Part shown: piece by piece, positions 9,334 through 47,515 of the stretch
Layout of the letters: every line of letters starts with the position of its first letter
Numbering within the stretch: position 1 is the first letter of the stretch
Assembly (NCBI GenBank): GCA_964489845.1
Contig: CAZAZV010000003.1
Coordinates: 1 to 51,307 of the forward strand
Length of the DNA stretch: 51,307 nt
Reading direction: 5' to 3'
Origin: an uncultured Candidatus Saccharibacteria bacterium
GTDB taxonomy: Bacteria > Patescibacteriota > Minisyncoccia > UBA6257 > GWB1-50-10
Notes under the pieces: generated by a model
Told to the model about the DNA's origin: nothing
Database searches by the model: none
What the model saw: the letters and a program-made list of their open reading frames with translations, nothing else
Made by a program: the position numbers and the translations under genes

Positions 9334-9387
9334 ATTTCCCCCTACCAAAGAGCTATTCTTTCTCTCGAGCAACGCTCGAGTGTTTAT

Positions 9388-9416
9388 GTTGTAGCGTATA
9401 TTTCTGTTCCTGTCAA
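9388..9416 (-). promoter_or_regulatory. Putative sigma70-type promoter
   Basis: On the minus strand: TTGACA, a 17-nt spacer, then TACAAC. A perfect 7-bp inverted repeat CTCGAGC-aac-GCTCGAG (9364-9380) follows in the leader. Confidence 0.4.
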
Positions 9417-9478
9417 TTGGCGGCGGTGGCTCCGCTCCCGTACTTGGCGGATTTGTCTTTCCGCTTTACACTTGAAAT

Positions 9479-13771: not shown

Positions 13772-13879
13772 GAACTAAAACTGCCGTCCCGGGCAGAGCC
13801 CGAGAAGGCAGTGGGATTAATGCTCCCATTATACCGTACACTGTCAATGGTTTCAACATGCCTGTGGATAACCATTTTA

Positions 13880-15846: not shown

Positions 15847-15847
15847 A

Positions 15848-23449: not shown

Positions 23450-24675
23450 CCATTTTCCTTTACGTACACCTCCATATTCTCGAAAACATACTGGAGCATA
23501 CTATCGGTCATCCCGTGATGGAGCCCGAGCAGAAATGAATTCTTCAGTATCATATCGGCGTTTTTCAGGTCTCCTATTCTCCGGTATGCGACATCTCGAT
23601 ATGCGGGGTGCTTCAGGATATTCCCGGAGAACAGCGGGCGCGTTTGAATCTTGCGGTGTTCCAGATAGCGGACCAATTCGTTTCTCTTGAGCGGCGAAGT
23701 TTCCTTGATGGTGACGGGGAATGCGAGCCAGTTCGTCGTGCTCCCCTGAAGCGGCTCGGGGAGTATGAAATGCTCCGCAAATGAGCCAAGAAACCCGTAC
23801 AAGGCGTTGAAATTATTGCGTCGCTTCTCCAGGAAACCACTCAGGCGCTCCAGCTGCTTGAGGCCGAAGGCGGCTTGCATCTCCGTCGGTTTGAAGTTGT
23901 AGCCGCGCTCCACGAAGACGAACGCGCTGTCGTACGCTTCTCCGTCGATCTCAAATGTCGAAAGGCGGGCATCTATGCCGTTTTCTCTGGCGGGTATGCC
24001 GCGCCCCCAATCTCTAAAGAGCCGCGCGTGCTCCCGCACTGCTTTGTCGTCCGTCATCAGCATACCACCTGCACCGCCTGCCGTAATGACGTGGGAGGCA
24101 TAGAAACTCGTCGTCGTGATATCGCTCCACGTGCCCGAGGGTTGCCCATCTATTGTTCCGCCGATGGTGTCACAGCTGTCTTCGATGAAAACAAGGTGAT
24201 GTTTGTCGCAGAACGCCCTTATGTCGCGCGTTGGGACGAAATTCCCGATGAGGTGAGGTGCCATAACCGCAACGGTTTTCGGAGAATACGCCGCTTCAAG
24301 CTGGTCCGCGTCGATGGTGTAGCGACTCATCACTACGTCGACGAAGACGGGAGTGAGGCCGGCTTGTACAATCGGCGCAACCGTCGTGTTGAAATTGCAT
24401 GCGGGCGTAATAACTTCGCTTCCCTTCGGGAAACGCATCGCCTCCAGCGCGATGAGGTTCGCTGACGAACCGGAGTTGACGAAGAGCCCGGTTTCTTTGC
24501 CGAATATGCCGGCGATTTTCCGTTCGAACTCCGCGGTTATTTCACCGACCGTCAACCAGCCCTTGCGAAGCACGGCGTCGACCGCTTGTATCTCCGCTTC
24601 GTCGAAGGCGTCCGTCGTATTCGGCGCATACCATACCCAATCCTCTCCCGGTTTGAATTCGGTGCGTTTTTCCAT
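23446..24675 (-). CDS. DegT/DnrJ/EryC1-family enzyme with His replacing the Schiff-base Lys: candidate NDP-4-keto-6-deoxyhexose 3-dehydrase (ColD/E1-like)
   Basis: VNSGSSANL and FIEDSCDTIGG are present. SFYASHVITAGGAGG aligns to the aminotransferase SFxxxKxxxxGEGG with H at the K position. The protein has only 3 Cys. Confidence 0.75.
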   Translation of the reverse strand: MEKRTEFKPGEDWVWYAPNTTDAFDEAEIQAVDAVLRKGWLTVGEITAEFERKIAGIFGKETGLFVNSGSSANLIALEAMRFPKGSEVITPACNFNTTVAPIVQAGLTPVFVDVVMSRYTIDADQLEAAYSPKTVAVMAPHLIGNFVPTRDIRAFCDKHHLVFIEDSCDTIGGTIDGQPSGTWSDITTTSFYASHVITAGGAGGMLMTDDKAVREHARLFRDWGRGIPARENGIDARLSTFEIDGEAYDSAFVFVERGYNFKPTEMQAAFGLKQLERLSGFLEKRRNNFNALYGFLGSFAEHFILPEPLQGSTTNWLAFPVTIKETSPLKRNELVRYLEHRKIQTRPLFSGNILKHPAYRDVAYRRIGDLKNADMILKNSFLLGLHHGMTDSMLQYVFENMEVYVKENG

Positions 24676-24676
24676 A

Positions 24677-25738
24677 TTAGTGCATTTCTATTTTACCTTC
24701 TTCTGTTTCTATCGGAACACAGCGCATCCATATTTTATCTTTCCACCAATCTTCGTTATTGATGTACCAATCAATTGTTTTCTTTAATCCGTCCTCGAAA
24801 CTTATCTGCGGCTCCCATCCCACTACGCGCTTTATTTTGGACGTATCGGCGGTGTGTCGGAATACCTGTCCCGGTCGGTCGCCAACATTCAGCGCGTAAG
24901 AGGTGTGTTTCACTTTATCCCCCTTGGTGTTCATTATTCTCAGAATGGTATCGGCGATCTCGTTTACCGACCGATGAGTTCCCGACCCCACATTGAAAAC
25001 TTCTCCCACTACCTGCCCGTTCGGGGCTGATAGTATCATATCGAGCGCGCGCACGAGGTCGTCCACATAGGTGAAGTCCCGGCTACTCTCGCCGCTTCCG
25101 TGAACGGTCAGTGGTTCACCCAGGATACAACTGGTTATGAAACGGGGTATTAATTTCTCCAGATGCTGTTTGGGTCCGAACATATTGAACGGCCTCACGA
25201 TGACCGCCGGTATCTTGTACGTCGTGATGTAGGAATATACCAGCCGGTCAGCCCCCACCTTCGCCGCCGCATAGGGGCTTTGAGGATTCAACGGATGATA
25301 CTCGTCCATTTTAGGATTTACCGCAGTGCCATATACCTCACTCGTAGATATATGAATGAATTTCTCTATCCTGTGCCTGTTGTTCAAGACCGCGTTTGCC
25401 ACCCGCTGCGTGCCAATAACGTCTGTTTCGAAAAAGATGGCATCGTCGAAAATAGAACGAGTGACGTGCGTCTCCGCTGCAAAATGAAGCACGATATCCG
25501 CTTGAGCGACGAGATGTTCCACCAACTTTGCGTTTTTCACATCGCCGTACCAGAAAACGAACCGCTTATCATTGCGCATCTCTGCGGGGATGTTCCGAAT
25601 ATCGGCGGCGTACGTCAGGACATCCAGAACGATGAATCGGCAGTCAAGATACTTCTTAAACAAAAACGCAAGCGCGTTGCTGCCGATAAAACCCACTCCA
25701 CCCGTAATCAGTATCGTTTTGGCGTATGGTTGAGGCAT
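24677..25738 (-). CDS. rfbB: NDP-glucose 4,6-dehydratase (RfbB-like)
   Basis: ILITGGVGFIGSN, LTYAADIRN, HFAAETHVTRSI and ISTSEVYG. Confidence 0.85.
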   Translation of the reverse strand: MPQPYAKTILITGGVGFIGSNALAFLFKKYLDCRFIVLDVLTYAADIRNIPAEMRNDKRFVFWYGDVKNAKLVEHLVAQADIVLHFAAETHVTRSIFDDAIFFETDVIGTQRVANAVLNNRHRIEKFIHISTSEVYGTAVNPKMDEYHPLNPQSPYAAAKVGADRLVYSYITTYKIPAVIVRPFNMFGPKQHLEKLIPRFITSCILGEPLTVHGSGESSRDFTYVDDLVRALDMILSAPNGQVVGEVFNVGSGTHRSVNEIADTILRIMNTKGDKVKHTSYALNVGDRPGQVFRHTADTSKIKRVVGWEPQISFEDGLKKTIDWYINNEDWWKDKIWMRCVPIETEEGKIEMH

Positions 25739-27001
25739 AGTTTATATCAGCTTACTTCATGGCTTCAAAAATTTCAATTATGGCACGAACCCTGTCAGTG
25801 AAGAGATTCCCGCCATGGATGACCCGCTCGCGACCCCGCTCTGCGATTTTCTTCCGCTCGGATTCGTGCTGCAGATAAAAATCCACTTTGCGTTTCATCT
25901 CTTCGTATGATTCGAAGAATTCCGCCTCTTCGCCTTCCTTGAAATACTCCCCGATTTTGCTTGTACGGTAATGCAGCATAAACGCGCCGGATGCGGGGAT
26001 TTCAAAGCTGCGGCAGGCAGTCACCTCGTCGTTGTGCTCCCGCACGAATGCCAGTGCGATTTTGCTCGATATGAGCACCCTCGACATCTCATGGCACATT
26101 ACCGCTTTAAATTGTATGCATCCTTTTTTGTACAAGCAGGAATCTTTCGGGTATTTCCCCCAATTGTTGCCGTAAATCTTGATATTGTATCCGTCCCTGC
26201 AAAGCCGCTCAAGGTATTCCGACCGTCCTTCCTTCGCGTACGTACCGATGAAAACGATGTCGGCTCCGAGGTTTTTATCGGGCTTCAAATCCTCAATCGA
26301 GCCGTGACACTCTCTATCCGCCGCACACGGTAAGAACACCGATTTCACCGCACCCATCTTCAGTAGTTCACCGGCATTCACCCAGTTAAATGACAGATGG
26401 CAATCGTACAACGGAATGGACGCATAGAAAAAGTCGCTGCACGTTTTGGGGAAAAGTACGTAATCGGGGTACCATGAAAACACTTTGGCGATTTTCCTGA
26501 GCGTCTTGACCGTCGCCGGTTTTATAAACGTCGGTTTGAAGAGGAGTATCAAGTCCGGCTGAAACGCTTCGGCTTCTTTCACGAGTCCTCTATTCAGCTT
26601 CCCGGTAAAGAAATAGTGAGGTGTTTTCAGAAATTTGATGATGATGCGGTTGAAGAAATGAAATTTGAAATAATCGTTGAAGGCGACGGTTTTTACCGCT
26701 GTGCCCGTTTCTTTAAACGCTTTCACGGAAAGATCAAACGACCCTCCCTGACCCGCATCACCGCCAATGAGTACTTTCAAGTCATCATTTCGCGGCCCCA
26801 CTAGAACATCCCCGTCACTCATGATTCTCGGAGCGTATCCCCTGGAAGTGAGAAACGCCGCCACCCGCCCGCGTAATGCATCGCTGTGTATGGAGACGAA
26901 AAGCAGCGGCTTGCAGGTTTCGAGCAGATGTTCCGAGCCCCGCAAGATGTTGAACTCTTCTCCCTCGGCGTCGATTTTTATGACGCGTGGAGGAGCGATT
27001 T

Positions 27002-27294
27002 TCTTTTCTTTTAGCAAGTCGTCTAGGCTTGAAACCCGCACGGCGAGGTCCCCAGCGCCCCCGCTTATCGCGCCTGTCGCGCCGGAACCCCTGAAGTGAG
27101 TCGTTCCGCTCCGCACTGATACTGCGGACTCGACGACTTCCGTATTCCTGCAATCGTTCAGGACAAGATGCTTTTTCAGGAATTCGATATTTTCCGGCAA
27201 CGGCTCGAATGCGTACACTTTCCCTTCGTTGCCGACCAGTCTCGACGCGAGCAATGTGTATATCCCGACATTCGCACCGATGTCGTAAACAACG
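27002..27294. repeat. Tandem duplication, copy 1 (293 bp)
   Basis: Identical base for base to 27295-27587, by full manual comparison. Confidence 0.95.
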
Positions 27295-27587
27295 TCTTTT
27301 CTTTTAGCAAGTCGTCTAGGCTTGAAACCCGCACGGCGAGGTCCCCAGCGCCCCCGCTTATCGCGCCTGTCGCGCCGGAACCCCTGAAGTGAGTCGTTCC
27401 GCTCCGCACTGATACTGCGGACTCGACGACTTCCGTATTCCTGCAATCGTTCAGGACAAGATGCTTTTTCAGGAATTCGATATTTTCCGGCAACGGCTCG
27501 AATGCGTACACTTTCCCTTCGTTGCCGACCAGTCTCGACGCGAGCAATGTGTATATCCCGACATTCGCACCGATGTCGTAAACAACG
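27295..27587. repeat. Tandem duplication, copy 2 (293 bp)
   Basis: Identical to 27002-27294. The match extends 2 nt further (tc microhomology) and then diverges (27297 t versus 27590 a). Confidence 0.95.
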
Positions 27588-27794
27588 TCACCGTTTTTGA
27601 CTCTCTCGGCGAACCATTTTTGCTCTTCCGCTTCGTATGTACCGAGCCAGTACCCGTTCACCCCGCTGCCTTTTATCCACTTCGCGCCCCGCAACGGGCC
27701 ACGCCGTATTTTTATCACCGTCCCCGCCGGGATAAGTTTCAACGGCAAGCGGATGAGCTTCCCGAGAAACGCTTCGCTCGATGTGCGGGGTGGA

Positions 27795-28958
27795 TTAAAC
27801 ATGATGCCGTAATGCCCTCAGGAGACCTTCGATGTCTTTTTCATAACTGTACCCTTGGATTATCTTGGATGATTCTTCGCCGAATCTCCGGCGCATGGTT
27901 TCATCCTCTATGAGTTTCTTCAATTTTTGTGACAGTTCCTCAATGTCGCCCACGGGAAATCTGAAGCCGTTCACGCCATCGTGCACCAGGTCAAACCCCG
28001 AGCCGGGCAGGTCTGAAATCACTACGGGGAGTCCGAAATTCATTGCCTCATTCACGACCAGACCCCACGTTTCCCCCGCACCAGACGGGAGTACGAAGAT
28101 GTCCGCGAGCGTGTAGTATGCAGGCAGTTCGGTTTGATTTTTAAATCCGACGAAATGAACGTTCTCTAGCTTGTGCTGCTGCACATACGCTTCCAGAGCA
28201 AGGCGCAGCTCGCCGTCACCGGTGAATATCACATGAACGGCCGGCGCATGACAACTTGCCTCAAGCAGCGCGAATGCTTTCAGTGTGTCAAGTGGGCGCT
28301 TCTTGGGAATAAGTTTGCCGACGGAGAGCACCACGATGTCATTCGGACCGATACTATTTTTCTCCCGCAACTCATCGCGCTTCGGTTTCAACTCATGCGC
28401 CGTTTCTTGAAACCGCATGTTGTCCACCGCATACGGCGCAAAGAAAAGTTTTGTGTCCGGGACTCCGTAGTACTGGTAGAATTTCTTGTTCTCCTCGCCG
28501 ATGTAGAGGAATCTGTCAATGAGCTTGAAAAGCACGCCGCCCAGCAGCACCTTCTTTACAAATCTTCGTTTTGGTTCTTTCATCAGTTCTTGGTTCAGGG
28601 GACTTTCACCGAGCAAGAGTGTTTTCATCCCTAATAGTTTCGAAAGGAAAATTGCTCCCCAGTTTGTAAAAGAATTCCATCCGTATACAAGTAGGAAATT
28701 CGGCTTATCTTCTACCAGCCACTTCAACAAGTTGGTTACGCCTTTCAGGAAATGATAACGGTAGCCGTCGAGAAGCGGTACGTCCCATTTAATTTCTCTA
28801 TTGAATTCCTTATCGAAAAACCCCTCACCGCGGATACTCACATCGCTTTGAAAGTAAACCCTCAACTCCAGTTCCTCTCGTGCTGAAATCTTCCGGAAGA
28901 GCGGCGCCTGGTACTGGATGGGATGCGAGGTCAGTATGGCAAGCTTGATTTTACTCAT
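27795..28958 (-). CDS. Glycosyltransferase family 4
   Basis: Start at MSKIKLAILTSHP, an ATGA overlap with the upstream methyltransferase gene. The C-terminal part reads GETWGLVVNEAMNFGLPVVISD. Confidence 0.85.
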   Translation of the reverse strand: MSKIKLAILTSHPIQYQAPLFRKISAREELELRVYFQSDVSIRGEGFFDKEFNREIKWDVPLLDGYRYHFLKGVTNLLKWLVEDKPNFLLVYGWNSFTNWGAIFLSKLLGMKTLLLGESPLNQELMKEPKRRFVKKVLLGGVLFKLIDRFLYIGEENKKFYQYYGVPDTKLFFAPYAVDNMRFQETAHELKPKRDELREKNSIGPNDIVVLSVGKLIPKKRPLDTLKAFALLEASCHAPAVHVIFTGDGELRLALEAYVQQHKLENVHFVGFKNQTELPAYYTLADIFVLPSGAGETWGLVVNEAMNFGLPVVISDLPGSGFDLVHDGVNGFRFPVGDIEELSQKLKKLIEDETMRRRFGEESSKIIQGYSYEKDIEGLLRALRHHV

Positions 28959-29677
28959 TGTTTCGCTTCGACAATCAGATTCTGGGTGAAAATATCGCCC
29001 GGGGTACCCGTCTCGATACGTAAGAAGAGCTTCGAGCACTGTTCGATGCACCACCAGAGGACGTACCTGATAAACGATTTCGCCCCATGAACAACGGGGC
29101 GCTGTGGATATACGTTTATTTCCCGAAACCCCGCGACTTTCAACAACTGCTTTATGCTTTGAGCGGTGAAGGCCGTTTCATGAGTGAAGTCACCGTGCCG
29201 CAGCCGCCCCCAGAAAAGATTCCCCGCGTTGACCGTCTGCGCAACGAATGCGCCATGTTCCCCAAGTGATTCACGTACTATCTCAACGAGTTCCAGCAAC
29301 TCGTCTTTGGGGAAATGCTCGAGAAGGTCTCGCGCGAACACGAGGTCGAATTTTCCTCTCTCCCTGCCTAGAAACTCCCTCACGTCGGCAACTCTTACGT
29401 TCCGTATGCCCAGTTTCCCCGCTCGCTCCATCTGTTCCTTACTCACGTCTATGCCCTCTGCGTTCTCGTACCCTCGTTCTTGGAGCCAGTACACGAACCC
29501 CCCGTCGCCGCATCCCGCATCCAGGATTCTGGCACGCTTCTCGCGGGGCAGAAACCTCCCGTAATAACTCTCCCACGTTACGAAATGCCCCCGTATATCT
29601 GCGAGAGATGGCCTGTGATACAAATCACCCGTGTGCGTGCTTATATATCGCTCGTAAAACTTATCTCGGTAACTCAT
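28955..29677 (-). CDS. Class-I SAM-dependent methyltransferase
   Basis: ILDAGCGDGGFVYWL followed by DLVFARDLLEH. Confidence 0.85.
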   Translation of the reverse strand: MSYRDKFYERYISTHTGDLYHRPSLADIRGHFVTWESYYGRFLPREKRARILDAGCGDGGFVYWLQERGYENAEGIDVSKEQMERAGKLGIRNVRVADVREFLGRERGKFDLVFARDLLEHFPKDELLELVEIVRESLGEHGAFVAQTVNAGNLFWGRLRHGDFTHETAFTAQSIKQLLKVAGFREINVYPQRPVVHGAKSFIRYVLWWCIEQCSKLFLRIETGTPGDIFTQNLIVEAKQ

Positions 29678-30704
29678 TGTGGTCCCGGGAACCCACGTCA
29701 GCCTCCACCATCATCCTGACCAATTCATCAAATTTGGTTTTCGGTTCCCACGCGAGTTCTCTCTTTGCTTTCGAAAAGTCAGCTAAAAGGTTTTCTACAT
29801 CCAGCGGCCTGAAATATGCCTTGTTTACCGAAACCAATTCTTTTCCCGTTTCCCCGTCGAAGCCCCTTTCTTCGACCCCCCTGCCGCGCCACTCGATGTT
29901 AATATCTACACTGCCAAAAGCTGCTTCCACGAAATCTCGCACGCGATAATTCTTGCCCGAACCGATCACGTAGTCATTTGGTTTCCCCCGTTGAAGCATG
30001 AGCCACATAGCTTCTACGTAGTCACCTGCGAATCCCCAATCCCTTCGACTATCGAGATTCCCCAACTCCAATTTCTCGGCTTTACCTTCCTTGATTCTCG
30101 CCACCGTTGACGTGATCTTGCGGGTAACAAACTCAAAGCCGCGCCGGGGCGACTCATGATTGAAAAGTATTCCCGAGCATGAGAATATGCCGTATGCCTC
30201 CCGATAAAATTTGGTCAGGTGAAAAGATGCCAGCTTGGATATCGCATAGGGGGATACTGGATGAAAAGGCGTGCGTTCATTCTGTGGAGACTCTTCCACA
30301 CTTCCAAACATCTCGCTGGTACCTGCGAAATAGAATTTACAGTCGGATCTCAGGTTCTTGATAGAATCCAACAAGTAATGAGTCCCGTTTATGTTGGTCT
30401 CGAGGGTTCCAAAATCATCCTTAAACGAAAGGGCTACCTGGCTCTGGGAAGCAAGGTGGTATATTTCATCTGGCTGAACAGTGTGAATCATCCTCCATAC
30501 GGTGGGGAGATCCCTCACGTCTCCGTAATGGACGGTTATCTTATCCAGGATGTGGTTTATTCTCGAAAATCTCTGACGTTGGTCCTCAAAGGCTGCTCTC
30601 CGGACAAGTCCATGAACCTCGTAGCCCTTTTTCAGAAGAAGCTCCGCCAGATATGAACCGTCCTGCCCCGTTAAACCCGTTATAATAGCTCTTTTTGTGT
30701 CCAT
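29661..30704 (-). CDS. gmd: GDP-mannose 4,6-dehydratase
   Basis: AIITGLTGQDGSYLAELLLKKGYEVHG, SPYAISK and GILFNHESPRRG. Confidence 0.92.
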   Translation of the reverse strand: MDTKRAIITGLTGQDGSYLAELLLKKGYEVHGLVRRAAFEDQRQRFSRINHILDKITVHYGDVRDLPTVWRMIHTVQPDEIYHLASQSQVALSFKDDFGTLETNINGTHYLLDSIKNLRSDCKFYFAGTSEMFGSVEESPQNERTPFHPVSPYAISKLASFHLTKFYREAYGIFSCSGILFNHESPRRGFEFVTRKITSTVARIKEGKAEKLELGNLDSRRDWGFAGDYVEAMWLMLQRGKPNDYVIGSGKNYRVRDFVEAAFGSVDINIEWRGRGVEERGFDGETGKELVSVNKAYFRPLDVENLLADFSKAKRELAWEPKTKFDELVRMMVEADVGSRDHNELPR

Positions 30705-31756
30705 AGGTTGCTGAGAAGAATTTTAATCCTGTTGCTGAAACTATCAAGCCCAAATTCACTCATGATTCGAGTCCTCAAGTAATGCTTGTCGAGGAGTCGT
30801 CCCGGTGCTTCTCCCTCTAAAACACGAAGAAGTGTTTCCTCTATTTCGCGACGATTATCGGGGTCAATTAAGAACCCCGTCTCTCCATTTAACACGGCGT
30901 CCCGAGATCCATCTTTGTTGCCTGCGATGACTGGTGTCCCGCAAGCCAATGCTTCAAGGAACACTATACCAAATCCCTCTCCCTTGCTCGGCATGATGAA
31001 CACACGAGCGAGATTATAATATCGTGCGAGGTCCTCATCACTTACTCGACCAGTGAGCACCACGCTATCCTGTAGATTCAATCTCTTTACCAAACTCTCA
31101 ACTCTTTCTCTGTCGTTGCCTTCTCCAACCAGCACGTATTTTACGCGCGGGTGTTTTCTCTTTATGTCGGGGAGGATTTCTATAACTTTGTCGTATCCTT
31201 TATACGCTTCGCTTGAGTTGAGCCGCGCCACAGTAAGGATAATTTCATCTGAAACTTTCAATCCTAGTTTCTTTATCGCCTGCTCATTGCTTCCCTCCTG
31301 TATATCGAACTCATCACCGTTGACTGTGGGGGGGAGCATTGTGATTCTTTTCGGAGAAATTCCCGCCCCGCTCACCATTTTGTCGAATGTGAACTTTGAT
31401 ATCGTGACGACCTGAATTGCTTCCCTAAGATACTCAATCTTCGCTCTTTCGTTCTTTAGATTCCACACCTCTATTCCATATGTGAATGCCACATACTGTA
31501 TCCCCACGATTCGATGGAGATAATAGGAAATGGGCAGGAAATTGACGTGACTACAAAACGTAGCCGACGGTTTTGCAAAAACCGCTCCAGCGATGGCTTC
31601 AAGGATGAAAACTATCTTATGGAAAAGAGTCGGACCACGCAGTTCAACAAGATAAACTTCAACTCCGAGCTTCTTCAGAGCATGTATAACGTCTCGATTG
31701 TATCGCTGAATACCGCCGACCCAAGAGAGTTGAGTGGAGAGGAAAAGAATTTTCAT
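30680..31756 (-). CDS. Glycosyltransferase family 4
   Basis: 358 aa with PSKGEGFGIVFLEALACGTPVIA. Confidence 0.88.
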   Translation of the reverse strand: MKILFLSTQLSWVGGIQRYNRDVIHALKKLGVEVYLVELRGPTLFHKIVFILEAIAGAVFAKPSATFCSHVNFLPISYYLHRIVGIQYVAFTYGIEVWNLKNERAKIEYLREAIQVVTISKFTFDKMVSGAGISPKRITMLPPTVNGDEFDIQEGSNEQAIKKLGLKVSDEIILTVARLNSSEAYKGYDKVIEILPDIKRKHPRVKYVLVGEGNDRERVESLVKRLNLQDSVVLTGRVSDEDLARYYNLARVFIMPSKGEGFGIVFLEALACGTPVIAGNKDGSRDAVLNGETGFLIDPDNRREIEETLLRVLEGEAPGRLLDKHYLRTRIMSEFGLDSFSNRIKILLSNLWTQKELL

Positions 31757-32640
31757 AATGCTTGACTTCGGTTCGTGGCGATGAAGTCTCGAATATGCTC
31801 CTGCAGGTCGCGTTTCGGAGTCCAGCCCAGTGCCCGCACTTTGCTTGTGTCTATATCCGAATCCATCCTATTCCCCGCCCGTGCCGGGAGCATCGTTACA
31901 GGGGCGCCGAACATTTGAGCCACTTCCAGTATCGAATGCTTGCCCTCCGAGCCGATGCCGAACCCATCTCCCACACCATCGTCGCCGACCAAGAGCAAGC
32001 CGGTGATGATGTCGTCAATGTGCGTGAAATTTCTCTTTTGCGTCCCCGGTGACACGACGGTCAGCGGTTTACCCTCACGATACAATTCTTTGAAAATGCC
32101 GATAACTGTCGCGTACGGTCCAGTTGTAATCTCGCCCGGCCCGTACACGTTATAGAAATACGCGATGGCGTGCGGGACACCAAACCACGAGCCGTAATTA
32201 TTTACCAGCTCCGAATTACTCGCCTTCGTCCAGGCGTACGGGCTCTGATTTCTGCCCAAACCCCCATCCCCGAATTTCGTACTCGAGCCGGCGTACACGA
32301 TTCGCGTGTTGCGCTTGCGGCAAAATTCCAAAACGGCGAATGTGCCCGCCTTATTCAAGTCCCAGACGAGCGGAACATCATCAAAGCTTTTTTCCACCCG
32401 CGAATATTCGCCAAGGTGGAAAACGATATCGGGTATTTCCGGAATCAGTCGCTCTATGTCTTTGGTGTGCCCCTCGCGATAGTCGGCTCCGGGAACATGA
32501 TTGTCTTTGGAGCCGGTGAAGTAATTGTCGAGTGAAATGACTCGGTCCCCACGGGCAACAAGTGCCCTCACTAGGTGTGAGCCGATGAAGCCGGCGCCCC
32601 CCGTTACTAAGACTGTCTTTGTTGTTCCCTTCTTATCCAT
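31753..32640 (-). CDS. NAD-dependent sugar-nucleotide decarboxylase/epimerase (UDP-glucuronate decarboxylase-like SDR)
   Basis: VLVTGGAGFIGSH, LDNYFTGSKDN and YAWTK. Confidence 0.8.
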   Translation of the reverse strand: MDKKGTTKTVLVTGGAGFIGSHLVRALVARGDRVISLDNYFTGSKDNHVPGADYREGHTKDIERLIPEIPDIVFHLGEYSRVEKSFDDVPLVWDLNKAGTFAVLEFCRKRNTRIVYAGSSTKFGDGGLGRNQSPYAWTKASNSELVNNYGSWFGVPHAIAYFYNVYGPGEITTGPYATVIGIFKELYREGKPLTVVSPGTQKRNFTHIDDIITGLLLVGDDGVGDGFGIGSEGKHSILEVAQMFGAPVTMLPARAGNRMDSDIDTSKVRALGWTPKRDLQEHIRDFIATNRSQAL

Positions 32641-33442
32641 GCGTCTCGCGCAGTTTTTCGTTCAATTCGTCTGCTTTCTTGTGCAGCTGCAAATCGACAC
32701 CGATGGAGTCGGCAAATTGTATGAATGCTTTCATGTCTTTCGGGAAACAGGCGCTGTTTTGAAGGCCGATACCGCCGTACCCGCGGTAGTCGTCGCACAA
32801 AACGTCGAGATGGCTTCCGCCGATGCGCGCATCGCGGCTCACCGCTTCACGGACGTTATCGTAATTCACGCCGAGCTTCTCGCACACGTCGTACATCTGA
32901 TTCGCGAAAATCACCCGCGTTGCAAGATACGTGTTGCCGAAAAATTTCACCATTTCCGCTTCCGTCGCATGGAGCACTTTCTCGTACGGGGCGCGAGGCA
33001 GAAGTTCGAAAAGTTCCTCCGCGCATTTCCGGTGTGCTTCGTCGACAATCCCCATAATCTGCCGTTCGGGATTCAGGAAATCGTTCACCGCCGTCTTCGC
33101 TCGCAAGAATTCCGGGCTGAAGAGAATAATTTTTTTCGGATGCCTCTTCTGAAATCGCTCCGTGGAACCGGGCGTGATCGTCGACTTTATGACCACCACT
33201 TTCCCGTCATCGATGTTTTCCAGGGTCTCCACAACCGCCGAGTCGTCGTAGCGGTTTTCCTCAAAATGAAACGGCGTCGGGACGGCGACGAAAATAATAT
33301 TCGCTTGGTTTACTTCTTCCGGGGAACCGAGTTCTTTGTATTTGTCGTAGACAAAAAGCCGGAAGCGCTCCGGATGGTTCTCGAACCACTCGCGGAGCGC
33401 GCCGCCGACGTATCCCACGCCGATAATGCCTATCTTAACCAT
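32633..33442 (-). CDS. UDP-glucose/GDP-mannose dehydrogenase-family protein, short form without the C-terminal nucleotide-sugar domain (269 aa)
   Basis: IGIIGVGYVGGA, EFLRAKTAV and the catalytic-Cys motif SACFPKD. The protein ends about 30 aa after that Cys. Confidence 0.75.
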   Translation of the reverse strand: MVKIGIIGVGYVGGALREWFENHPERFRLFVYDKYKELGSPEEVNQANIIFVAVPTPFHFEENRYDDSAVVETLENIDDGKVVVIKSTITPGSTERFQKRHPKKIILFSPEFLRAKTAVNDFLNPERQIMGIVDEAHRKCAEELFELLPRAPYEKVLHATEAEMVKFFGNTYLATRVIFANQMYDVCEKLGVNYDNVREAVSRDARIGGSHLDVLCDDYRGYGGIGLQNSACFPKDMKAFIQFADSIGVDLQLHKKADELNEKLRETHG

Positions 33443-33454: not shown

Positions 33455-34042
33455 CTACTTACTTTTTGCGATTGCATCAAGTATGCCTCGCACGCGCGTA
33501 TCATTCGGCCAGAGCACGATAATCCGTTTGCCGATTGCCTCAAGTTTTGCCGTATCCCTCGCCGTCCCGTACAAGTCAAATAATCCATAGAGCGCTTGCG
33601 GCAAGTTCGGACCGATAGCGAGCGCTTTCAGGTAGTAGCTCTCCGCTTTGTCGAAATAATCTTGTTTCTGAAACGCCCGCCACATCATGTCATATGTATT
33701 CGCGATTTGCACGAGCTGCACCACATCACTTTGGTCTATATTGCCCTCCGCAAAGCTCGCAAGCTTCTGCTGCACCGCTTCCGGTGCCTTGCCTGACGCC
33801 ACCGCGCCCTGGACGAGTTCCACAAAAAACTTCACTACCTCTTCTTGCCCGATCGGCGAGCGGTAGTTAAAGACCTTGTTAAACGCGCTTTCTATGCCAT
33901 CGACGGTTGTGAGCGACGGTAAGCTTTCCTGTGTCGCAATATAAAACTGTGCTCTCGTATACGGCAAATACGCTCCGAAATAGATGGAAAGGAGTGCGAG
34001 CGTGATGCCGATACCAATGGTTATATTCTTTATCATAATCAT
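33455..34042 (-). CDS. Membrane-anchored helical (TPR-like) protein
   Basis: An N-terminal TM segment followed by a C-terminal YYLKALAIGPNLPQALYGLFDLY repeat-like helix pair. It overlaps the Wzy_C gene by 4 nt. Confidence 0.5.
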   Translation of the reverse strand: MIMIKNITIGIGITLALLSIYFGAYLPYTRAQFYIATQESLPSLTTVDGIESAFNKVFNYRSPIGQEEVVKFFVELVQGAVASGKAPEAVQQKLASFAEGNIDQSDVVQLVQIANTYDMMWRAFQKQDYFDKAESYYLKALAIGPNLPQALYGLFDLYGTARDTAKLEAIGKRIIVLWPNDTRVRGILDAIAKSK

Positions 34043-35349
34043 GTGGCCTTCAATCGAGGGTTAAGCGCGTACTCGCTCCAGGCAAGGAATGCCCACAGGG
34101 GGAGGTAGATAGACAAAACGTTAAAGAGGACGAGTCCCTGCACCACGTACGCCACGAGTGTCCCGAGAGCGAGTGCCCGCAGAGGCGTATGGCGCTCCCC
34201 TTCTCCCAGTGTGCGTTTTCCCCAAATCCGCCACAGGGCGAATGCAAGCGTTCCGAGGAACGCAAGTGTCCCGACTACTCCGGTCTCCGCGAGGTTATCG
34301 AAGACGATGCTGTGCGCCTCATCGAACCACGCACCGTAGTCGCCTGTCTGCACGTTGTAAAATGCGGGGTCATTGATGTGCTGGAAAAGATAGAGGTAGT
34401 TTCCGGGGCCCCAGCCGAAAATGGGGCGCTCTAGGAATCCTTTCCAGGCGATACGCCACGCGGCAAGACGGGTCCCGAATGTCTGTGCGGAAAGCGAGAT
34501 CTCGAAGATGCGTTTCGCGGGTGAGTGTTGGACGATTGCTGTGTTCTTAAGCGCGAAAAGTGCGCCGCCCAGAACGATGAGTGCGGCGAGTATCCCAAGT
34601 GCCGGCTTGCGCCATTTCTTACTCTGTACCGCCATATAAATGATCGCTCCGATAACACCGACAAACACACCAATATACGCTCCGCGCGTCCCCGTGAGGA
34701 TGAGAAATAGTCCAAAAAGAGCGACAAGGATGGCAAGTAAGAGCTTCTTCCGTATCGCGAGCACGGCGAAAAATGTGGCAAAAATCAGATATGCGGCGAC
34801 ATATGCCGAATTCCCCAGTGAGCCGCTAAACCGCTGACTCCAGCCTCCCGACCCGATAAGGCGCCCGATATTCAGGTTTGCGCCGACACCATAGAGAATC
34901 ATGAGCACCGCAGCCGCCACGAACGTGCCTGCGAGCAGTTTCCACTCTTTATCGCTCCGGAAGAGCGTCAGGAGAAGTACAAAAAATACATAGAGATGCA
35001 GAAGCTGCAACCCACCCTCGCCGCGCTCGAAGTTTGACCAGAACGAAAAATGCGGGTTGATGCCAACAAAGCCCGCAATCAGAAACGCAACCGTGAATGT
35101 CGTTAAGCCAATGAAAAGCGGCGACTTCACGATTTGCCTTAGGCGGTTCAGATATTCGCCCGCTCGTTTGTCGAACGCAAGGCCGAGGAGGAAAAAAACG
35201 AGGGCGAGCGCGCTCGCGGTTCTGAACCATGCATATTTTCCTACAATGAAGGGGAAAAGCGTCGACGTCGTGACAATAACAAGCGCGAAGGGAATTGTAT
35301 AAAGAAAAAGGCGGGATACTTTGAAGTAATCCATGCGCTCATTATGCAC
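34039..35349 (-). CDS. O-antigen ligase / Wzy_C-family membrane protein (ligase, polymerase or O-oligosaccharyltransferase)
   Basis: About 11 TM segments; LTGTRGAYIG, a periplasmic loop with RLAAWRIAW...GWGPGNY, and AHSIVFDNLAETGVVG. The 35349 start is GTG; an alternative ATG lies at 35334. Confidence 0.8.
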   Translation of the reverse strand: MHNERMDYFKVSRLFLYTIPFALVIVTTSTLFPFIVGKYAWFRTASALALVFFLLGLAFDKRAGEYLNRLRQIVKSPLFIGLTTFTVAFLIAGFVGINPHFSFWSNFERGEGGLQLLHLYVFFVLLLTLFRSDKEWKLLAGTFVAAAVLMILYGVGANLNIGRLIGSGGWSQRFSGSLGNSAYVAAYLIFATFFAVLAIRKKLLLAILVALFGLFLILTGTRGAYIGVFVGVIGAIIYMAVQSKKWRKPALGILAALIVLGGALFALKNTAIVQHSPAKRIFEISLSAQTFGTRLAAWRIAWKGFLERPIFGWGPGNYLYLFQHINDPAFYNVQTGDYGAWFDEAHSIVFDNLAETGVVGTLAFLGTLAFALWRIWGKRTLGEGERHTPLRALALGTLVAYVVQGLVLFNVLSIYLPLWAFLAWSEYALNPRLKAT

Positions 35350-35378
35350 CGACGTCGCTCAGTTTTCCAGTACCTCCC

Positions 35379-35409
35379 TTTGTCCGACGCCCGCTGGGCG
35401 TCGGACAAA
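35379..35409. other. Perfect 14-bp inverted repeat (hairpin) in the intergenic region
   Basis: TTTGTCCGACGCCC-gct-GGGCGTCGGACAAA. On the minus strand it is immediately followed by GGGAGG. Confidence 0.6.
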
Positions 35410-35424
35410 ATCACTTGCATTCTC

Positions 35425-35456
35425 AACCAAAAGAGCCCCGAAGGGCTCTCTTGGTT
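35425..35456 (-). terminator. Rho-independent terminator of the surface-protein gene
   Basis: On the minus strand GAGCCC-ttcg-GGGCTC is followed by TTTTGGTTG; it lies 32 nt after the stop at 35488. Confidence 0.65.
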
Positions 35457-35487
35457 CGATTTACGCTATCGAGAAACTCGCGTCAGA

Positions 35488-38400
35488 TTACAACGCACTG
35501 TTGATCGCAGTCGATGGCGTACCGTCGATCGGCAAGTTCTGAATGGTGTCGAGTGTCGTACCATTTCCGTTGCCGTCATAGCCCAAGCTGCTCTCATCAA
35601 CCTGATATTTCAGGTCTCCTAGTGAGCCGACACCGAATGCCGCCGTGTCACCGCTCTTCATTACTTGAGAGTTCTCAATCGCGATGTAGCGGAATGAACC
35701 ACCATCAACTGTGCGGTTCGCAGCCGTCGAGGTCGAGATGTTAAGGGTCACATACCCGCCTGACGTTGCTTGTACTCCATTGTCGATTTCAACACTGAAC
35801 CCTGAAGTTTGGTTCTGGCTGGCTGTCGTGTAGATCCCGAAGGTACTCGTCGTGTTTCCACTCTGAGTGAACTTGAAGCTTGTCGAGGTACCCAAGCGAA
35901 CTGACGCCGGACCGGGGTTGTAGATCTTGTAGACCGCCAACTGTGTTCCGGACGGGCAGCCGTTACCCGCAGAACCGCACGAGGCGGCAGCAGTCGGCGA
36001 AACCGCCGTAATCTGCACGTCCTGCGGCACTACGTATGTGTAACCGGACGCTGCTGGCGTACCGATGACCGTTGTCGTGGTAGCCGACGATGCACCCGTC
36101 GAGGACACGCTCGAAGTCGCTGCAATGTCGAACGAGAAGCTGTCACCCAAGACCGCGTTGCCTGCCGCTCCAACCGTCGCCTTGATGTACACACTCATTC
36201 CAGTCGTCGGAACGATGCTCTGGAATATGTTGTCGTTGGCGGTGAACTTCACAGTACAAACACCTGATGCACAGGAATTGAACTGCGGCTGCGTCGTTAC
36301 GAGCGAACCGCCCGCAGACGGGTCACCGTTGTAGAGCTGGAAGTTGGTCAGCGTAGTCGTTGCAAGCGTCCCATTAGCTGTCGAGCTCGCTGTGAGCTTC
36401 AACACTGTGATCTTCGCTCCTTCATACTGTGGCAGTATCTTGAAGGCGAATACGACGCTCGGCGTTGAACCGATCGTCACTATTTGGTTCACTGACGGCG
36501 ATGCGCCTGCACCGGAGAGCACTGACAAGGTCAGGTTGCCTGCGGCGACAAGTGTTTGCGCCTGTCCTGAACCCGCGTACGTCGGGGTTACCGTGTTACC
36601 GGTTACCGCACCGGATGCTGTGATGCCGCTCGAGGCGATGTTGAATTTGTTCGTCGAGCCCGTCGCCGCACCGGAGAGCACATCACTTGTCAGGATGAGG
36701 GTTACCGGTATCGAAGGGGTGACGACTATCGCCTGTGTCGGCGTGAATGTCACCGTGTCGTTCGTGCCCGGCGTGCCGCCAAGTGTGAGCGAGCTCTGCG
36801 AGTCGTTCGTGACGATGTATTCACTTGACTGCGGAATACCATCGCCATCCGCGTCGTTGTAGAGCTTGTAGTTGCCCAAGTCGGTGTTCACTGTCGAAGA
36901 ACCGTTGTGGGTGACCACGATCTTGGTGACTCTCGTGTTCTCACCTCCTGAACCAGCGTTCAAGGAGAAGCTCGCGAGCACATACCCGTTCGTGCCCGCA
37001 ACAACCGAGTTCGCCGCCGGTGTGGCCAGCGTGGTCACTGTGAGCGACGCCGCCGATACCGTCAGGTTGTAGCCGTTCTGCGCTGTGACACCCGGGTCAA
37101 CGAGGTCGCCGGTCACAAGCCGTTTCGCCTGGATGAGGTCAAACGACTTCACCTGGTAGGCGCTCGAGCTCGTAGCCGTCGATGGGATATCAGTCGACAC
37201 GCTAATCGTGTTGTCCTGACCCGCTGTCAAAATCGGGTAGCTCGAGAGTGTTACCGTCGTAGCGGCTGACGTGAAGGTCGAAGCCGCTGCGCTGTACACG
37301 ATACCACCGTTCACCCTGACATACACCGTACCGGTCAAGTTTGCGCTGCCGGTGCTCGATGCAATCTGGAAGCTCACCTGGCGAAGCTCATAGTTCTCAC
37401 CCGTCGGGTGGGCGATGAAGTCCGCAAGGTCCACACCCGTCGCGCCCGGGGCTACCGAGCCGCTCGGCGATGTGGCGCTTCTCGAGAAGGTCATCGTACC
37501 GCTGCCAATCGTCTGGATGTTGAATCCGTTGCCGATCGGGAAGCTCGAGTCATTCGTGCCCGCACCCGGAAGGAGCGAGACGCCGGTCGACACGCCGCGA
37601 AGGTCGATGTCGTAGTTGTTGTACACGACGAGATTAATCGTCTTCGTCGTGCCACCTACGATTTTCGCGAGCACGATCAGGTCTTTCGTCTGGCCCTTGC
37701 CGATGAGGTAGGGGTTGCTCGACAGGTTAAACGTGACGTACTGACCGCTCGGCTGGGCAACGGCAAGCACCGTGCCGTCCGTCGCTTCCAAGGTTACGTC
37801 CTTGTAGTCCGTGTCGTCCGCATTTCCGTAGTTGTAGAGCGTCAAGCCGTACAGCTTCGTGTCCTCATTGCTCGAGGTTTCCTGGATGCGGAAGCGCGTG
37901 ATTTCCTGCAAGTGCGCCGGGTCAACGTTCAGAGACGAAGAGCCGGTCGTTGTCAGGACATCCAATGTCGTTGAGGCAATCGAGCTGCCGCCGTTTACGA
38001 CGTTCATCGCCGTACCCGCAATCGGGAACGAGGCGCTCACGTTCGAAGCGGTGGAACTCACTGATTGCAAGGCGAGCGAGACGGTCCCGTTGTAGTTGCC
38101 ACTCAACAGGTTGACGCGGAATGTCAACTCAACCGACGTTCCCGCTTTGACGACCAAAGGAGTGGCGAACGGGATAACAATCGTGTTGTCGGCGTTGATT
38201 GAGGTGATGACGTTCCCATACCGATTCCCCTGCGCGTCGACGACATCAACACCGTTGATGTTGGTGTTCGCGACGAAGCCGCTCTTCGCGAGCGTGAGAG
38301 AATTGATTGAAACATCCTTCGAGCCCGCCGCAAAGATAACTTTCAAGACGGGGTTGAACGACGTTCCGCTACCGAGGACTTTCGCTCCCGGGTTGTCGGA

Positions 38401-38940
38401 CGCCACCTGCACCACGAGGTCTGTTCCCGAAGGAACTGATACAACTGGGCCGGTGGTCGTGCCGGTGGTCGTGCTGGTGGTCGTAGTTCCGCCTGTGGTA
38501 ACCGCAATCGCGCTGTACTTAGCCCGCGAAGACGGACCGAAGTAGCCGCCGTAGCTCCCGTAGCTGATGCCGTTCGCATCCTGCCACTTCTTCACTGCTG
38601 CCTGCGTGAGCGAGCCGTAGTACGTGCTCTCATTGCCCGGAGAGCCCGCGCCGCTCGACGCAATGGTGTAGCCCGCGCCGTTCAGGTACTGCTGCAGACA
38701 CTTCACGTCCGAACCGGACATTCCCGGATACAGATTTCTCGTGAAAGTGCACGCCGTGGTTCCCGTTGTGCTCGTGGTGGTAGAGGTCGAGCTCGATAAG
38801 AGCTGAACCAGAAGCGCCAAGAGCTGGTCCCGCGACATGCTCTGCAAGTCAGTGACCGATACTGCGTGCCCTACACCGCTCATGCCGATCATTGTCACGA
38901 GTGACAATGCGACAATGCTGATTTTCTGTAAGGTACTCAT
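35488..38940 (-). CDS. Large secreted cell-surface (S-layer-like) protein with a peptidoglycan-binding domain, 1150 aa
   Basis: A signal peptide (MSTLQKISIVALSLVTMIGMSGVGHA) is followed by a PG_binding_1-like segment (GSDVKCLQQYLN...YGSLTQAAVKKWQ). Then come poly-Thr linkers and repeated beta-rich T/S/G/V modules. Confidence 0.85.
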   Translation of the reverse strand: MSTLQKISIVALSLVTMIGMSGVGHAVSVTDLQSMSRDQLLALLVQLLSSSTSTTTSTTGTTACTFTRNLYPGMSGSDVKCLQQYLNGAGYTIASSGAGSPGNESTYYGSLTQAAVKKWQDANGISYGSYGGYFGPSSRAKYSAIAVTTGGTTTTSTTTGTTTGPVVSVPSGTDLVVQVASDNPGAKVLGSGTSFNPVLKVIFAAGSKDVSINSLTLAKSGFVANTNINGVDVVDAQGNRYGNVITSINADNTIVIPFATPLVVKAGTSVELTFRVNLLSGNYNGTVSLALQSVSSTASNVSASFPIAGTAMNVVNGGSSIASTTLDVLTTTGSSSLNVDPAHLQEITRFRIQETSSNEDTKLYGLTLYNYGNADDTDYKDVTLEATDGTVLAVAQPSGQYVTFNLSSNPYLIGKGQTKDLIVLAKIVGGTTKTINLVVYNNYDIDLRGVSTGVSLLPGAGTNDSSFPIGNGFNIQTIGSGTMTFSRSATSPSGSVAPGATGVDLADFIAHPTGENYELRQVSFQIASSTGSANLTGTVYVRVNGGIVYSAAASTFTSAATTVTLSSYPILTAGQDNTISVSTDIPSTATSSSAYQVKSFDLIQAKRLVTGDLVDPGVTAQNGYNLTVSAASLTVTTLATPAANSVVAGTNGYVLASFSLNAGSGGENTRVTKIVVTHNGSSTVNTDLGNYKLYNDADGDGIPQSSEYIVTNDSQSSLTLGGTPGTNDTVTFTPTQAIVVTPSIPVTLILTSDVLSGAATGSTNKFNIASSGITASGAVTGNTVTPTYAGSGQAQTLVAAGNLTLSVLSGAGASPSVNQIVTIGSTPSVVFAFKILPQYEGAKITVLKLTASSTANGTLATTTLTNFQLYNGDPSAGGSLVTTQPQFNSCASGVCTVKFTANDNIFQSIVPTTGMSVYIKATVGAAGNAVLGDSFSFDIAATSSVSSTGASSATTTTVIGTPAASGYTYVVPQDVQITAVSPTAAASCGSAGNGCPSGTQLAVYKIYNPGPASVRLGTSTSFKFTQSGNTTSTFGIYTTASQNQTSGFSVEIDNGVQATSGGYVTLNISTSTAANRTVDGGSFRYIAIENSQVMKSGDTAAFGVGSLGDLKYQVDESSLGYDGNGNGTTLDTIQNLPIDGTPSTAINSAL

Positions 38941-39310: not shown

Positions 39311-40066
39311 TTACATAAACGCGAGGGCGAGGAGCACCAGGAGCCCGAAGGCAAAAACGCTCATTTCCCGCAGGAGGAACGGGGTAACAGCGCGCCCGTC
39401 GCGCTCCCCCCGGAAACGGGAAATATCCCGCATAACGCTCAATATGAGCGCGGTGAGCGCCCCTCCCAAGACCGGTGAGAAGGGCAGCATATGTGCGAAG
39501 AAGAGCCCGGAAAGCCCCAAAAATACGAAAAGGAGCGTGTCGAGGAGGCGCTCCACCGCATCGTTGTTCTCCTCCCGCATCTCCCCTGCGAGAGCGACGA
39601 GGAAAAGCGTCGCCACCGCCGCCCAGACACCCAAAAACACGCTCTCCGCGAGCGTGAGGAGCGCTGAAGCGCCAAGAAAGAGGATAAGGGGATATCGTAA
39701 CGGCTGGAAGAACCGGCTTTTCCCCTCCCGTTCCTGCGCTGCGTCATGACGCGGCTGCGTCGAGTCGTGCAGAACCCAGAATACCGCGACGAATGCGAGT
39801 CCGAGCGGGAGCGCCGCGAGTACCCCTCCGTGCGTGAAGAGCACCGCCCCCGACACTGCCGTCGTCACAAATGAGATTCTCACGCGCTTCCGTTCCCTCC
39901 CCATGAGGAAGTAGAACAACGCGGAACACAGAAGGACGGCGATGAGCCATCCCTCCTCCGGGTAAAATGACAAAGAAACGAACGCTCCGGCGAGTACGAC
40001 GCTTCTATACAGTGAGCTCCACTCGCTTTGAGCGGCTATTAAATGAGACGCTAACGTTTTCGCCAT
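39311..40066 (-). CDS. Polytopic membrane protein, unknown function
   Basis: About 6 hydrophobic segments. The ATG at 40066 overlaps the clpB 3' end by 62 nt; a TTG at 39973 would avoid the overlap, so the start is uncertain. Confidence 0.5.
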
Positions 40067-47511: not shown

Positions 47512-47515
47512 CAAA

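Follow-up and report, generated by a model that had tools for sequence, protein, structure and literature searches.

The described system that best matches the locus studied here, as judged by analogy, is the surface-layer (S-layer) glycosylation (slg) cluster, for which Geobacillus stearothermophilus NRS 2004/3a (SgsE, WsaA, WsaB) and Paenibacillus alvei (SpaA, WsfB) are the reference systems. We analyzed a stretch of 51,307 nt (contig CAZAZV010000003.1 of assembly GCA_964489845.1; hereafter the window) in which the gene of a large surface protein is followed, on the minus strand, by the genes of a Wzy_C-family membrane enzyme and of a partner resembling tetratricopeptide repeat (TPR) proteins, and then by a large glycan locus. 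In the slg clusters, the S-layer gene is transcribed alone and, in Geobacillus, lies near the glycan cluster. A Wzy_C domain is found in the predicted O-oligosaccharyltransferase (O-OTase), whose TPR module is either separate (WsaA, 168 aa) or fused to the enzyme (WsfB), and the genes are tightly packed and overlapping, with the lowest GC in the middle of the cluster (PMC2943079). The window shows the Wzy_C domain, the overlapping genes and the central GC dip of the slg clusters; a terminator and conserved synteny were found at its surface gene, and its enzyme family from the Candidate Phyla Radiation (CPR) showed both separate and fused modules. The comparison was one of description and gene layout, not of the WsaB or WsfB sequences.

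However, there are differences. The partner in the window is encoded downstream of the enzyme and has a membrane anchor of its own, whereas the TPR gene of slg lies upstream. Export would use a Wzx-type flippase instead of the Wzm/Wzt ABC transporter of slg, and an initiating enzyme of the WsaP/WbaP type was absent from the window scans. The wall anchor is PG_binding_1 in the window family and SLH in slg, and the host is a CPR bacterium. Likenesses were also found to the PglL/PilO (TfpO)/PglS/TfpM enzymes. They share the Wzy_C domain with conserved Arg, Arg and His, their genes often adjoin the gene of their target (PMC3643930), their acceptor segments are of low complexity and rich in Ser/Thr, and PglL has a C-terminal TPR motif (PMC2943079).

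The core genes of the window are as follows (ORF, open reading frame).

35488..38940, minus strand: surface (probable S-layer) protein, 1150 aa (ORF and Pfam)
34039..35349, minus strand: Wzy_C-family membrane enzyme with WaaL fold (PF04932, AlphaFold2, Foldseek)
33455..34042, minus strand: TPR-like partner, 195 aa (ATGA overlap with the Wzy_C gene)

This order and these coordinates had been given in an earlier note made from the letters of the window, and the ORFs and Pfam matches agreed with it. The Pfam scans covered 44 window ORFs of at least 150 aa, which were picked by eye as probable genes; the ORFs outside these scans were mostly antisense or overlapping.

The earlier note also proposed that these genes form one system, in which a glycan is transferred onto the surface protein. 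Our best reading is likewise protein O-glycosylation with the neighboring surface protein as the prime target, and we hold it at slightly less than an even chance. It is preferred because the enzyme has a TPR-type subunit, synteny is tight, the Thr/Ser linkers are disordered and the slg clusters offer a close parallel. In the proposed mechanism, the 1150-aa gene would be transcribed alone and would encode the main peptidoglycan-bound surface protein, probably an S-layer protein. The operon past the terminator would open with a two-part enzyme, consisting of the WaaL-fold Wzy_C protein with its catalytic Arg-Arg-His and an outward-facing, membrane-anchored TPR-like subunit. The variable locus of about 28 kb would assemble a methylated oligosaccharide, rich in deoxy and amino sugars, on a polyprenyl-diphosphate carrier, and a Wzx flippase would carry it across the membrane. 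On the extracytoplasmic side, the Wzy_C/TPR pair would transfer the glycan en bloc to Ser/Thr residues of disordered low-complexity segments in secreted proteins, and the linkers of the neighboring surface protein would be the prime target. WsaA/WsaB or WsfB have been proposed to act in this way on the S-layer proteins of Geobacillus and Paenibacillus (PMC2943079). Among open-access PMC papers and bioRxiv preprints, we found none that links Patescibacteria to an oligosaccharyltransferase or a protein glycosylation system. We describe the locus as a testable lead, in which an uncharacterized glycan transferase of the Wzy_C type and its TPR module are encoded next to a probable surface-layer gene and a variable set of glycan genes.

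The Wzy_C enzyme and its TPR-like partner

The window comes from an uncultured, ultra-small bacterium, which sequence similarity places in the Parcubacteria/Paceibacteria (CPR). For all three core proteins (Wzy_C, partner and surface protein), the close homologues came from Patescibacteria/Parcubacteria only, and the nearest genome was Candidatus Jorgensenbacteria GWA1_54_12, with identities of 77% for ClpB, 57% for the surface protein and 55% for the Wzy_C protein. The window sequence was found in mine-drainage metagenome DNA runs only. The enzyme was present in at least 556 species genomes; our Wzy_C-centered sample of related loci comprised the best 80 of them and is skewed towards close relatives of the query.

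The Wzy_C protein has 436 aa from a GTG start, or 431 aa from the ATG at 35334, which is the length of the database entry P0001. PF04932 matched it with E 4.9e-20 (72.3 bits, against a gathering score of 31.7) and also matched all 58 homologues. Its AlphaFold2 model (58 homologues) reached a pLDDT of 91 and a pTM of 0.92, and it showed a 12-helix architecture of the GT-C type, as in WaaL. When this model was compared with the PDB by Foldseek, WaaL (7tpg_B) was the sole significant match (E 3.2e-7, TM 0.59/0.62) and FtsW was a distant second. A single-sequence search of the PDB gave no match, and a family profile was needed. This profile matched two PDB sequences: WaaL with E 1e-12 and 9rmk, an oligosaccharyltransferase of 610 aa, with E 4e-9. 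The HSHN motif in the 9rmk alignment is one that we take to be PglL-like.

Residues R222, R294 and H346 were invariant across the 58 homologues and aligned by hhalign with R215, R288 and H338 of E. coli WaaL; the score against this single sequence was weak (E 0.033) and is informative for the residue alignment only. WaaL is thus the best match in structure and in profile, with equivalents of its catalytic residues conserved. Two Arg and one His in extracytoplasmic loops are common to WaaL (R215, R288, H338) and PglL (R224, R298, H349) (PMC3643930), and the His is essential in WaaL-, PglL- and TfpM-type enzymes (PMC9829042). In NCBIfam, the only matches were below threshold, to IctB and to the exosortase-associated O-glycosylation ligase PEP_O_lig_1. 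Therefore, the Wzy_C protein falls outside every named NCBIfam family. Two invariant N-terminal motifs, FPFIVGKY and SFWSNFERGEGG, found no counterpart in WaaL or 9rmk when the family profile was aligned with these chains; they may be peculiar to the CPR family.

It is also possible to read the enzyme as a Wzy-type polymerase, which would build a capsule or wall polysaccharide from flipped repeat units and leave its attachment to another enzyme. The Pfam Wzy_C family also covers polymerases, Wzx-type flippases lie in the locus, and the window showed no second Wzy candidate. In addition, about 20 related loci have tandem Wzy_C paralogues, which would fit a polymerase plus a ligase. However, the invariant triad is that of ligases and OTases, and no Wzy-polymerase Pfam family was matched by any member of the Wzy_C family. 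Similarity to E. coli Wzy (WbbH) and WzyE was not detected by hhalign (E 0.82 and 0.34), a weak test as Wzy proteins are very diverse. No Wzz gene or other polysaccharide co-polymerase (PCP) gene was found in the window. Moreover, the Wzy_C gene is conserved despite differing sugar loci, and its place is the margin of the locus, where GC is normal. A conserved enzyme beside a variable sugar locus suits a donor-tolerant ligase or OTase better than a polymerase that is specific for its repeat unit. In slg and cps loci, polymerases are usually the most variable genes and lie in the low-GC center (PMC2943079). We thus consider a polymerase quite improbable, and a ligase-type enzyme is better supported by the triad, by the conservation beside variable loci and by the position at the normal-GC edge. 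The earlier note had held that ligases, polymerases and protein OTases of this fold cannot be told apart by eye. Lipid- and protein-acceptor enzymes are inseparable by sequence alone (PMC3643930), and the triad speaks against a polymerase. Because of the WaaL fold, the invariant triad and the lack of similarity to Wzy and WzyE, the protein is assigned, from its sequence and model, to the ligase/OTase type of the Wzy_C superfamily, in a CPR family of its own. It is probably a ligase or an O-oligosaccharyltransferase.

The gene of the partner overlaps the Wzy_C gene by 4 nt (ATGA), as the earlier note had described, and the two genes are predicted from this overlap to be translationally coupled. 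The TPR label of that note was weakly supported: TPR_14 matched with E 0.0024, below the Pfam cut-off, so that TPR-like is the safer name. The partner in locus L007 had a weak match to TPR_19. A simple Kyte-Doolittle window scan showed one hydrophobic, transmembrane-like segment at the N-terminus of the partner. In 74 of 79 related loci, the Wzy_C gene was followed within 1 kb by the partner gene. An exhaustive search gave 461 partner-family clusters at 50% identity, and the relatives were either stand-alone proteins of about 190-210 aa or the C-terminus of Wzy_C fusion proteins of 645-695 aa, with no other architecture. The partner is 35% identical to the C-terminal part of these fusions. In sequence terms, it is thus a genuine second subunit that is sometimes fused to the enzyme. 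In the fusions, its membrane helix comes after the last Wzy_C helix. Therefore, if the topology of WaaL holds, the helical-repeat domain would be extracellular, next to the catalytic loop. To our knowledge, WaaL has no TPR partner, and TacL, a Wzy_C-domain ligase of Streptococcus pneumoniae, has no TPR-like partner. WsfB and PglL have a C-terminal TPR motif, and Geobacillus WsaB, which has none, is encoded next to the 168-aa TPR protein WsaA (PMC2943079).

A second Wzy_C protein of 770-850 aa was encoded directly upstream of the studied Wzy_C gene in the related loci with tandem paralogues (for example, L078:167-2656, L055:5286-7841 and L040:7622-9994). In L055 and L078, the two that were scanned with Pfam, it was fused to canonical TPR repeats. 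Among 39 scored loci, the second Wzy_C protein occurred only alongside a divergent type of surface protein, and in several other paralogue-bearing loci the surface-protein homologue was partial or none was detectable. The window has no second Wzy_C paralogue.

The surface protein and its linkage to the enzyme

The N-terminus of the surface protein (MSTLQKISIVALSLVTMIGMSGVGHA-VS) resembles a signal peptide, as judged by eye. It is followed by a short helix, a Thr/Ser linker (aa 45-62), the PG_binding_1 domain (aa ~63-146) and a Thr/Ser/Gly linker (aa 147-166). About eight beta-sandwich domains make up the rest of the protein (AlphaFold2, pLDDT 82). The sole Pfam match was PG_binding_1 at aa 75-125 (E 5.7e-9). 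The term wall-anchored in the earlier note should be read as non-covalent binding to peptidoglycan. The two poly-Thr/Ser linkers quoted in that note were present. They were disordered in the AlphaFold2 model and contained Ser or Thr at 13 of 18 and 13 of 20 residues, in a protein with 27% Ser plus Thr and 4% Lys plus Arg overall. The family has more than 300 homologues, and most of those with 39-59% identity measure 1,100-1,170 aa; a few entries are shorter and truncated. All variants have in common an N-terminal module of signal peptide, coiled-coil-like helix, PG_binding_1 and low-complexity linker, except that in one relative an SLH domain replaces PG_binding_1. The linkers of the homologues include (TTP)n, (GT)n and (PAT)n repeats.

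We found that the arrangement of the surface gene and the Wzy_C gene recurs in dozens of related genomes and is not due to chance. Among the 54 loci with at least 8 kb of upstream sequence, the Wzy_C gene was preceded by a surface-protein homologue in 43 and by a different Ser/Thr-rich peptidoglycan-binding protein in two more. In the reverse test, which used metagenome loci centered on the surface protein with at least 6 kb of sequence (n = 20, some of them near-duplicates), the Wzy_C gene was downstream of the surface gene in all 20, usually 130-230 nt away. Related sugar genes occupied, on average, 3.15 kb of the 10 kb downstream, compared with 0.14 kb upstream.

The spacer between the two genes in the window is 139 nt long and contains two hairpins, a terminator and a perfect 14-bp hairpin, both of which the earlier note had pointed out.

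35425..35456, minus strand: intrinsic-terminator-like hairpin, with a GC-rich stem (AACCAAGAGAGCCC-TTCG-GGGCTCTTTTGGTT) and a U-rich tail
35379..35409, minus strand: perfect inverted repeat (14 bp, 3-nt loop), just ahead of GGGAGG and the Wzy_C start

The terminator-like hairpin lies just past the stop codon of the surface gene, and the RNA fold of the spacer region had a z of -6.3. One strong hairpin was found at the equivalent position after the surface gene in each of L006, L007 and L008. The terminator thus points to a separate transcription unit for the surface gene. The 14-bp inverted repeat occurs only once in the window, lacks a U tract in both orientations and was matched by neither the Rfam nor the tRNA scan. 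It may be a stabilizer of the 5′ end or a protein-binding palindrome.

On its other side, the surface gene is preceded by a spacer of 370 nt (38941-39310). This contains a sigma-70-like promoter match at 39268-39241 (TTGACA, 16 nt, TAGTAT), rated good, and a terminator-like hairpin at 39139-39120 between the promoter match and the surface gene. There was no obvious Shine-Dalgarno sequence ahead of the ATG of the surface gene. The spacer is bordered by one more gene.

39311..40066, minus strand: multi-pass membrane protein, 251 aa, between clpB and the surface gene

The last 62 nt of clpB are shared with this gene. In L001, L003, L006, L007 and L088, the slot between clpB and the surface gene was likewise occupied by a gene of about 250 aa, and in L004 by a shorter one (195 aa). 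The 251-aa protein may or may not belong to the candidate glycosylation system.

The glycan locus and other features of the window

The large locus of sugar, glycosyltransferase, methyltransferase and flippase genes that the earlier note had described was recovered by Pfam, a hydrophobic-segment scan and the translations. It extends from about 33.4 kb down to 5.5 kb, that is, over about 28 kb.

32633..33442, minus strand: short UDP-glucose/GDP-mannose dehydrogenase-like protein, 269 aa, at the start of the sugar locus (Pfam)
11104..32640, minus strand: core of the glycan locus (Pfam, hydrophobic-segment scan)
15848-17428, minus strand: flippase-like membrane protein, 526 aa (hydrophobic-segment scan)
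5510..11119, both strands: distal end of the glycan locus (Pfam)
9479-11119, plus strand: Gfo/Idh/MocA-like oxidoreductase (GFO_IDH_MocA match)
6957-8876, minus strand: AsnB-like amidotransferase (Asn_synthase match)
5510-6997, plus strand: Wzx-type flippase (Polysacc_synt, E 1.9e-34)

The 269-aa dehydrogenase-like protein matched the N-terminal and central Pfam domains of its family, and the C-terminal domain was unmatched. It was 52-65% identical in at least 13 related loci, where it often came directly after the TPR-like partner, and it was better conserved than the Wzy_C protein. The locus encodes GDP-mannose 4,6-dehydratase, other epimerases/dehydratases, a DegT aminotransferase and UDP-GlcNAc 2-epimerase. 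Seven glycosyltransferases were found (five GT4, one GT2 and one fusion of an FkbM methyltransferase with Glyco_trans_1_2), together with five methyltransferase domains, of the FkbM type and others. GC was 0.47-0.49 at 16-24 kb, the center of the locus, compared with 0.55-0.58 in the flanks, and the content of downstream sugar genes differed between related genomes. Such variable content and a central GC dip have been described for slg, cps and O-antigen loci (PMC2943079), in which the dip falls on laterally exchanged, strain-specific parts. A split transketolase at 20747-22617 (minus strand) has its N-terminal and pyrimidine/C-terminal halves in two genes. Its neighbors are the DegT aminotransferase, 4,6-dehydratases and FkbM methyltransferases, a context that hints at a branched-chain or otherwise unusual sugar.

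The earlier note had seen no lipopolysaccharide (LPS) core or lipid A genes, and the 44 scanned ORFs indeed contained no lipid A, Kdo or LPS-core family. Parcubacteria have been reported to be without lpxC and kdsA, and their cell envelope has been described as unresolved (PMC5220378). Therefore, the classical acceptor of WaaL is not expected. In this the enzyme differs from WaaL, as the window has no waa or lpx context and the lineage is reported to be without lipid A and LPS. Wzm/Wzt were not found in the Pfam scans of the window. The ABC pair at 539-2133 matched ABC_tran and FtsX-family domains. We presume this pair to be FtsE/FtsX and not Wzm/Wzt.

Several further features were recorded. 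The ORF at 5504-6979 (minus strand) was rejected as a gene, being a highly charged antisense shadow of the plus-strand Wzx, and several other long antisense ORFs in the GC-rich window look spurious. At the far edge of the glycan locus, the DsbA/thioredoxin-like ORF at 3436-5220 (minus strand) is over-extended and likely starts near a hydrophobic, transmembrane-like segment at aa ~359; it probably encodes a secreted thiol-disulfide oxidoreductase. Five tRNA genes (Gln, Thr, His, Pro and Arg) lie at 1-72, 2927-3000 and 47104-47512, and no Rfam family other than tRNAs was matched in the window.

Candidate acceptors of the glycan

Several observations weigh against protein O-glycosylation of the surface protein. 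PglL_A (PF15864) and Wzy_C_2 were found neither in the window protein nor in any of the 58 CPR homologues (E <= 0.01), and the PglL_A motif is the feature that separates PglL from WaaL. The profile and structure comparisons that the earlier note had in mind thus yielded the WaaL fold and the ligase/OTase triad, but not the motif of PglL. No initiating phosphoglycosyltransferase was found in the window by Pfam (no Bac_transf or Glycos_transf_4). Thr/Ser linkers are common among the homologues and not universal, as some linkers are without Ser/Thr (GGN repeats, Pro/Val-rich stretches). The assignment of protein Ser/Thr as the acceptor is one that we infer, as it was identified by no result here.

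The surface protein is likely an S-layer protein, a view that draws on features of the family and on literature not tied to it by sequence. In this literature, hexagonal S-layer lattices were predicted for Patescibacteria proteins of 1131-1274 aa (bioRxiv 2024.05.28.596244), proteins with peptidoglycan-binding domains were among the most highly expressed secreted proteins in cultured Paceibacteria (Kuroda et al.), and a 'glycosylated S-layer' was put forward as a speculation for CPR/Patescibacteria (PMC5220378). A Foldseek search with the surface protein returned only generic tandem Ig-like/MG-domain proteins and nothing specific to S-layers, which again counts against the proposed target.

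The linkage itself also has exceptions. The conserved block holds HtrA, ClpB, the protein of about 250 aa and often TruB as well. Therefore, inherited gene order explains part of the linkage. In nine of the 54 loci, the enzyme and the glycan locus were found in other contexts. In genome JAYRXE01, which was checked in full, some 300 kb separate the enzyme and the glycan locus from the surface gene, whose neighbors are still HtrA and ClpB. For 39 loci, we also compared the similarities of four proteins (surface protein, Wzy_C protein, partner and ClpB), with ClpB controlled. Co-divergence of the surface protein with the Wzy_C protein or the partner was not significant (partial r 0.25-0.30). The Wzy_C/partner pair was 40-55% identical across genomes, and the similarity of the Wzy_C protein tracked that of ClpB (r = 0.64). 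The similarity of enzyme and partner was flat, while the surface protein fell into sharply different classes, and the co-divergence result gives no support either way. The co-occurrence that the earlier note had proposed to test thus appeared in the linkage counts from both directions and in the position of the partner, but not in the unlinked loci or in co-divergence. Its proposal of a single system is favored by the type of enzyme, the reported lack of LPS in the lineage, the partner, the synteny and the slg-like layout, and is weakened by the missing PglL motif and the breaks in linkage.

One alternative is that the enzyme is a glycolipid (lipoglycan) ligase, which would move the glycan to a glycolipid anchor in the membrane, so that the surface glycan would be independent of the surface protein. 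TacL offers a precedent: it is a Wzy_C-domain ligase, active outside the membrane, with a glycolipid acceptor (pneumococcal lipoteichoic acid) in a bacterium without an outer membrane (PMC5727136). The closest structure and best profile match of the window enzyme, WaaL, is also a lipid-acceptor ligase, and where the conserved block breaks, the enzyme stays with the glycan locus and not with the surface protein. The lack of co-divergence would fit this alternative as well. On the other hand, the extracytoplasmic TPR-like subunit has its parallels in the protein-targeting WsaA/WsaB, WsfB and PglL (PMC2943079), and the tight linkage to the surface protein, in all 20 loci of the reverse test and in most loci of the upstream count, also disagrees with a lipid acceptor. 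The window differs from TacL, compared by description and not by sequence, in that no teichoic-acid-type or anchor-synthesis genes turned up in the window scans made. We consider a glycolipid acceptor unlikely.

The enzyme might also be an O-OTase whose real targets lie elsewhere among the secreted proteins (type IV pilins, for instance, or numerous envelope proteins), with the surface protein as a syntenic bystander. Most PglL homologues (21 of 31) adjoin pilin genes (PMC3643930), and in L078 two large ORFs, PilB-/PilC-like by eye only, come after the Wzy_C genes. In Ca. Yanofskyibacterium, a Wzy_C+TPR fusion lies far from the highly expressed peptidoglycan-binding protein, and the absence of co-divergence between enzyme and surface protein would be expected here too. 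However, no prepilin motif was found anywhere in the window and there is no pilin neighbor, in which the locus differs from those of PglL-type enzymes. The two ORFs of L078 recur in no other fetched locus, so that adjacency to putative pilus genes was seen in one of about 84 loci, and a pilin as the local target was rejected. Of the secreted neighbors, none is nearly as consistent as the surface protein. We regard other secreted proteins as the main target as rather improbable, and protein O-glycosylation directed at the neighboring surface protein remains the reading that we prefer.

In a broader form, this reading would extend to the clade. O-glycosylation might be a near-housekeeping function of Paceibacteria, carried out by a CPR-specific two-subunit Wzy_C/TPR enzyme that places a strain-variable coat of methylated deoxy and amino sugars on a peptidoglycan-bound S-layer and possibly on other secreted proteins. 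This broader form seems possible, and we hold it with slightly greater reserve, somewhat below an even chance.

For the poorly characterized cell envelope of CPR/Patescibacteria, this widely conserved locus supplies a concrete set of genes. If the acceptor is a lipid, the locus would point to a lipoglycan in CPR membranes, which would be informative too. If the enzyme does act on proteins, it would be a new, compact two-part O-OTase for glycoengineering. Protein glycosylation, if true, would explain the presence of O-antigen-ligase genes and large variable sugar loci in bacteria without LPS, and the surface glycan would then be a factor in interactions with hosts and phages. If the pathway is clade-wide, its product would be a protein-linked functional equivalent of the O-antigen in bacteria without an outer membrane, and would likely help to determine how these episymbionts attach to hosts and are recognized by phages.

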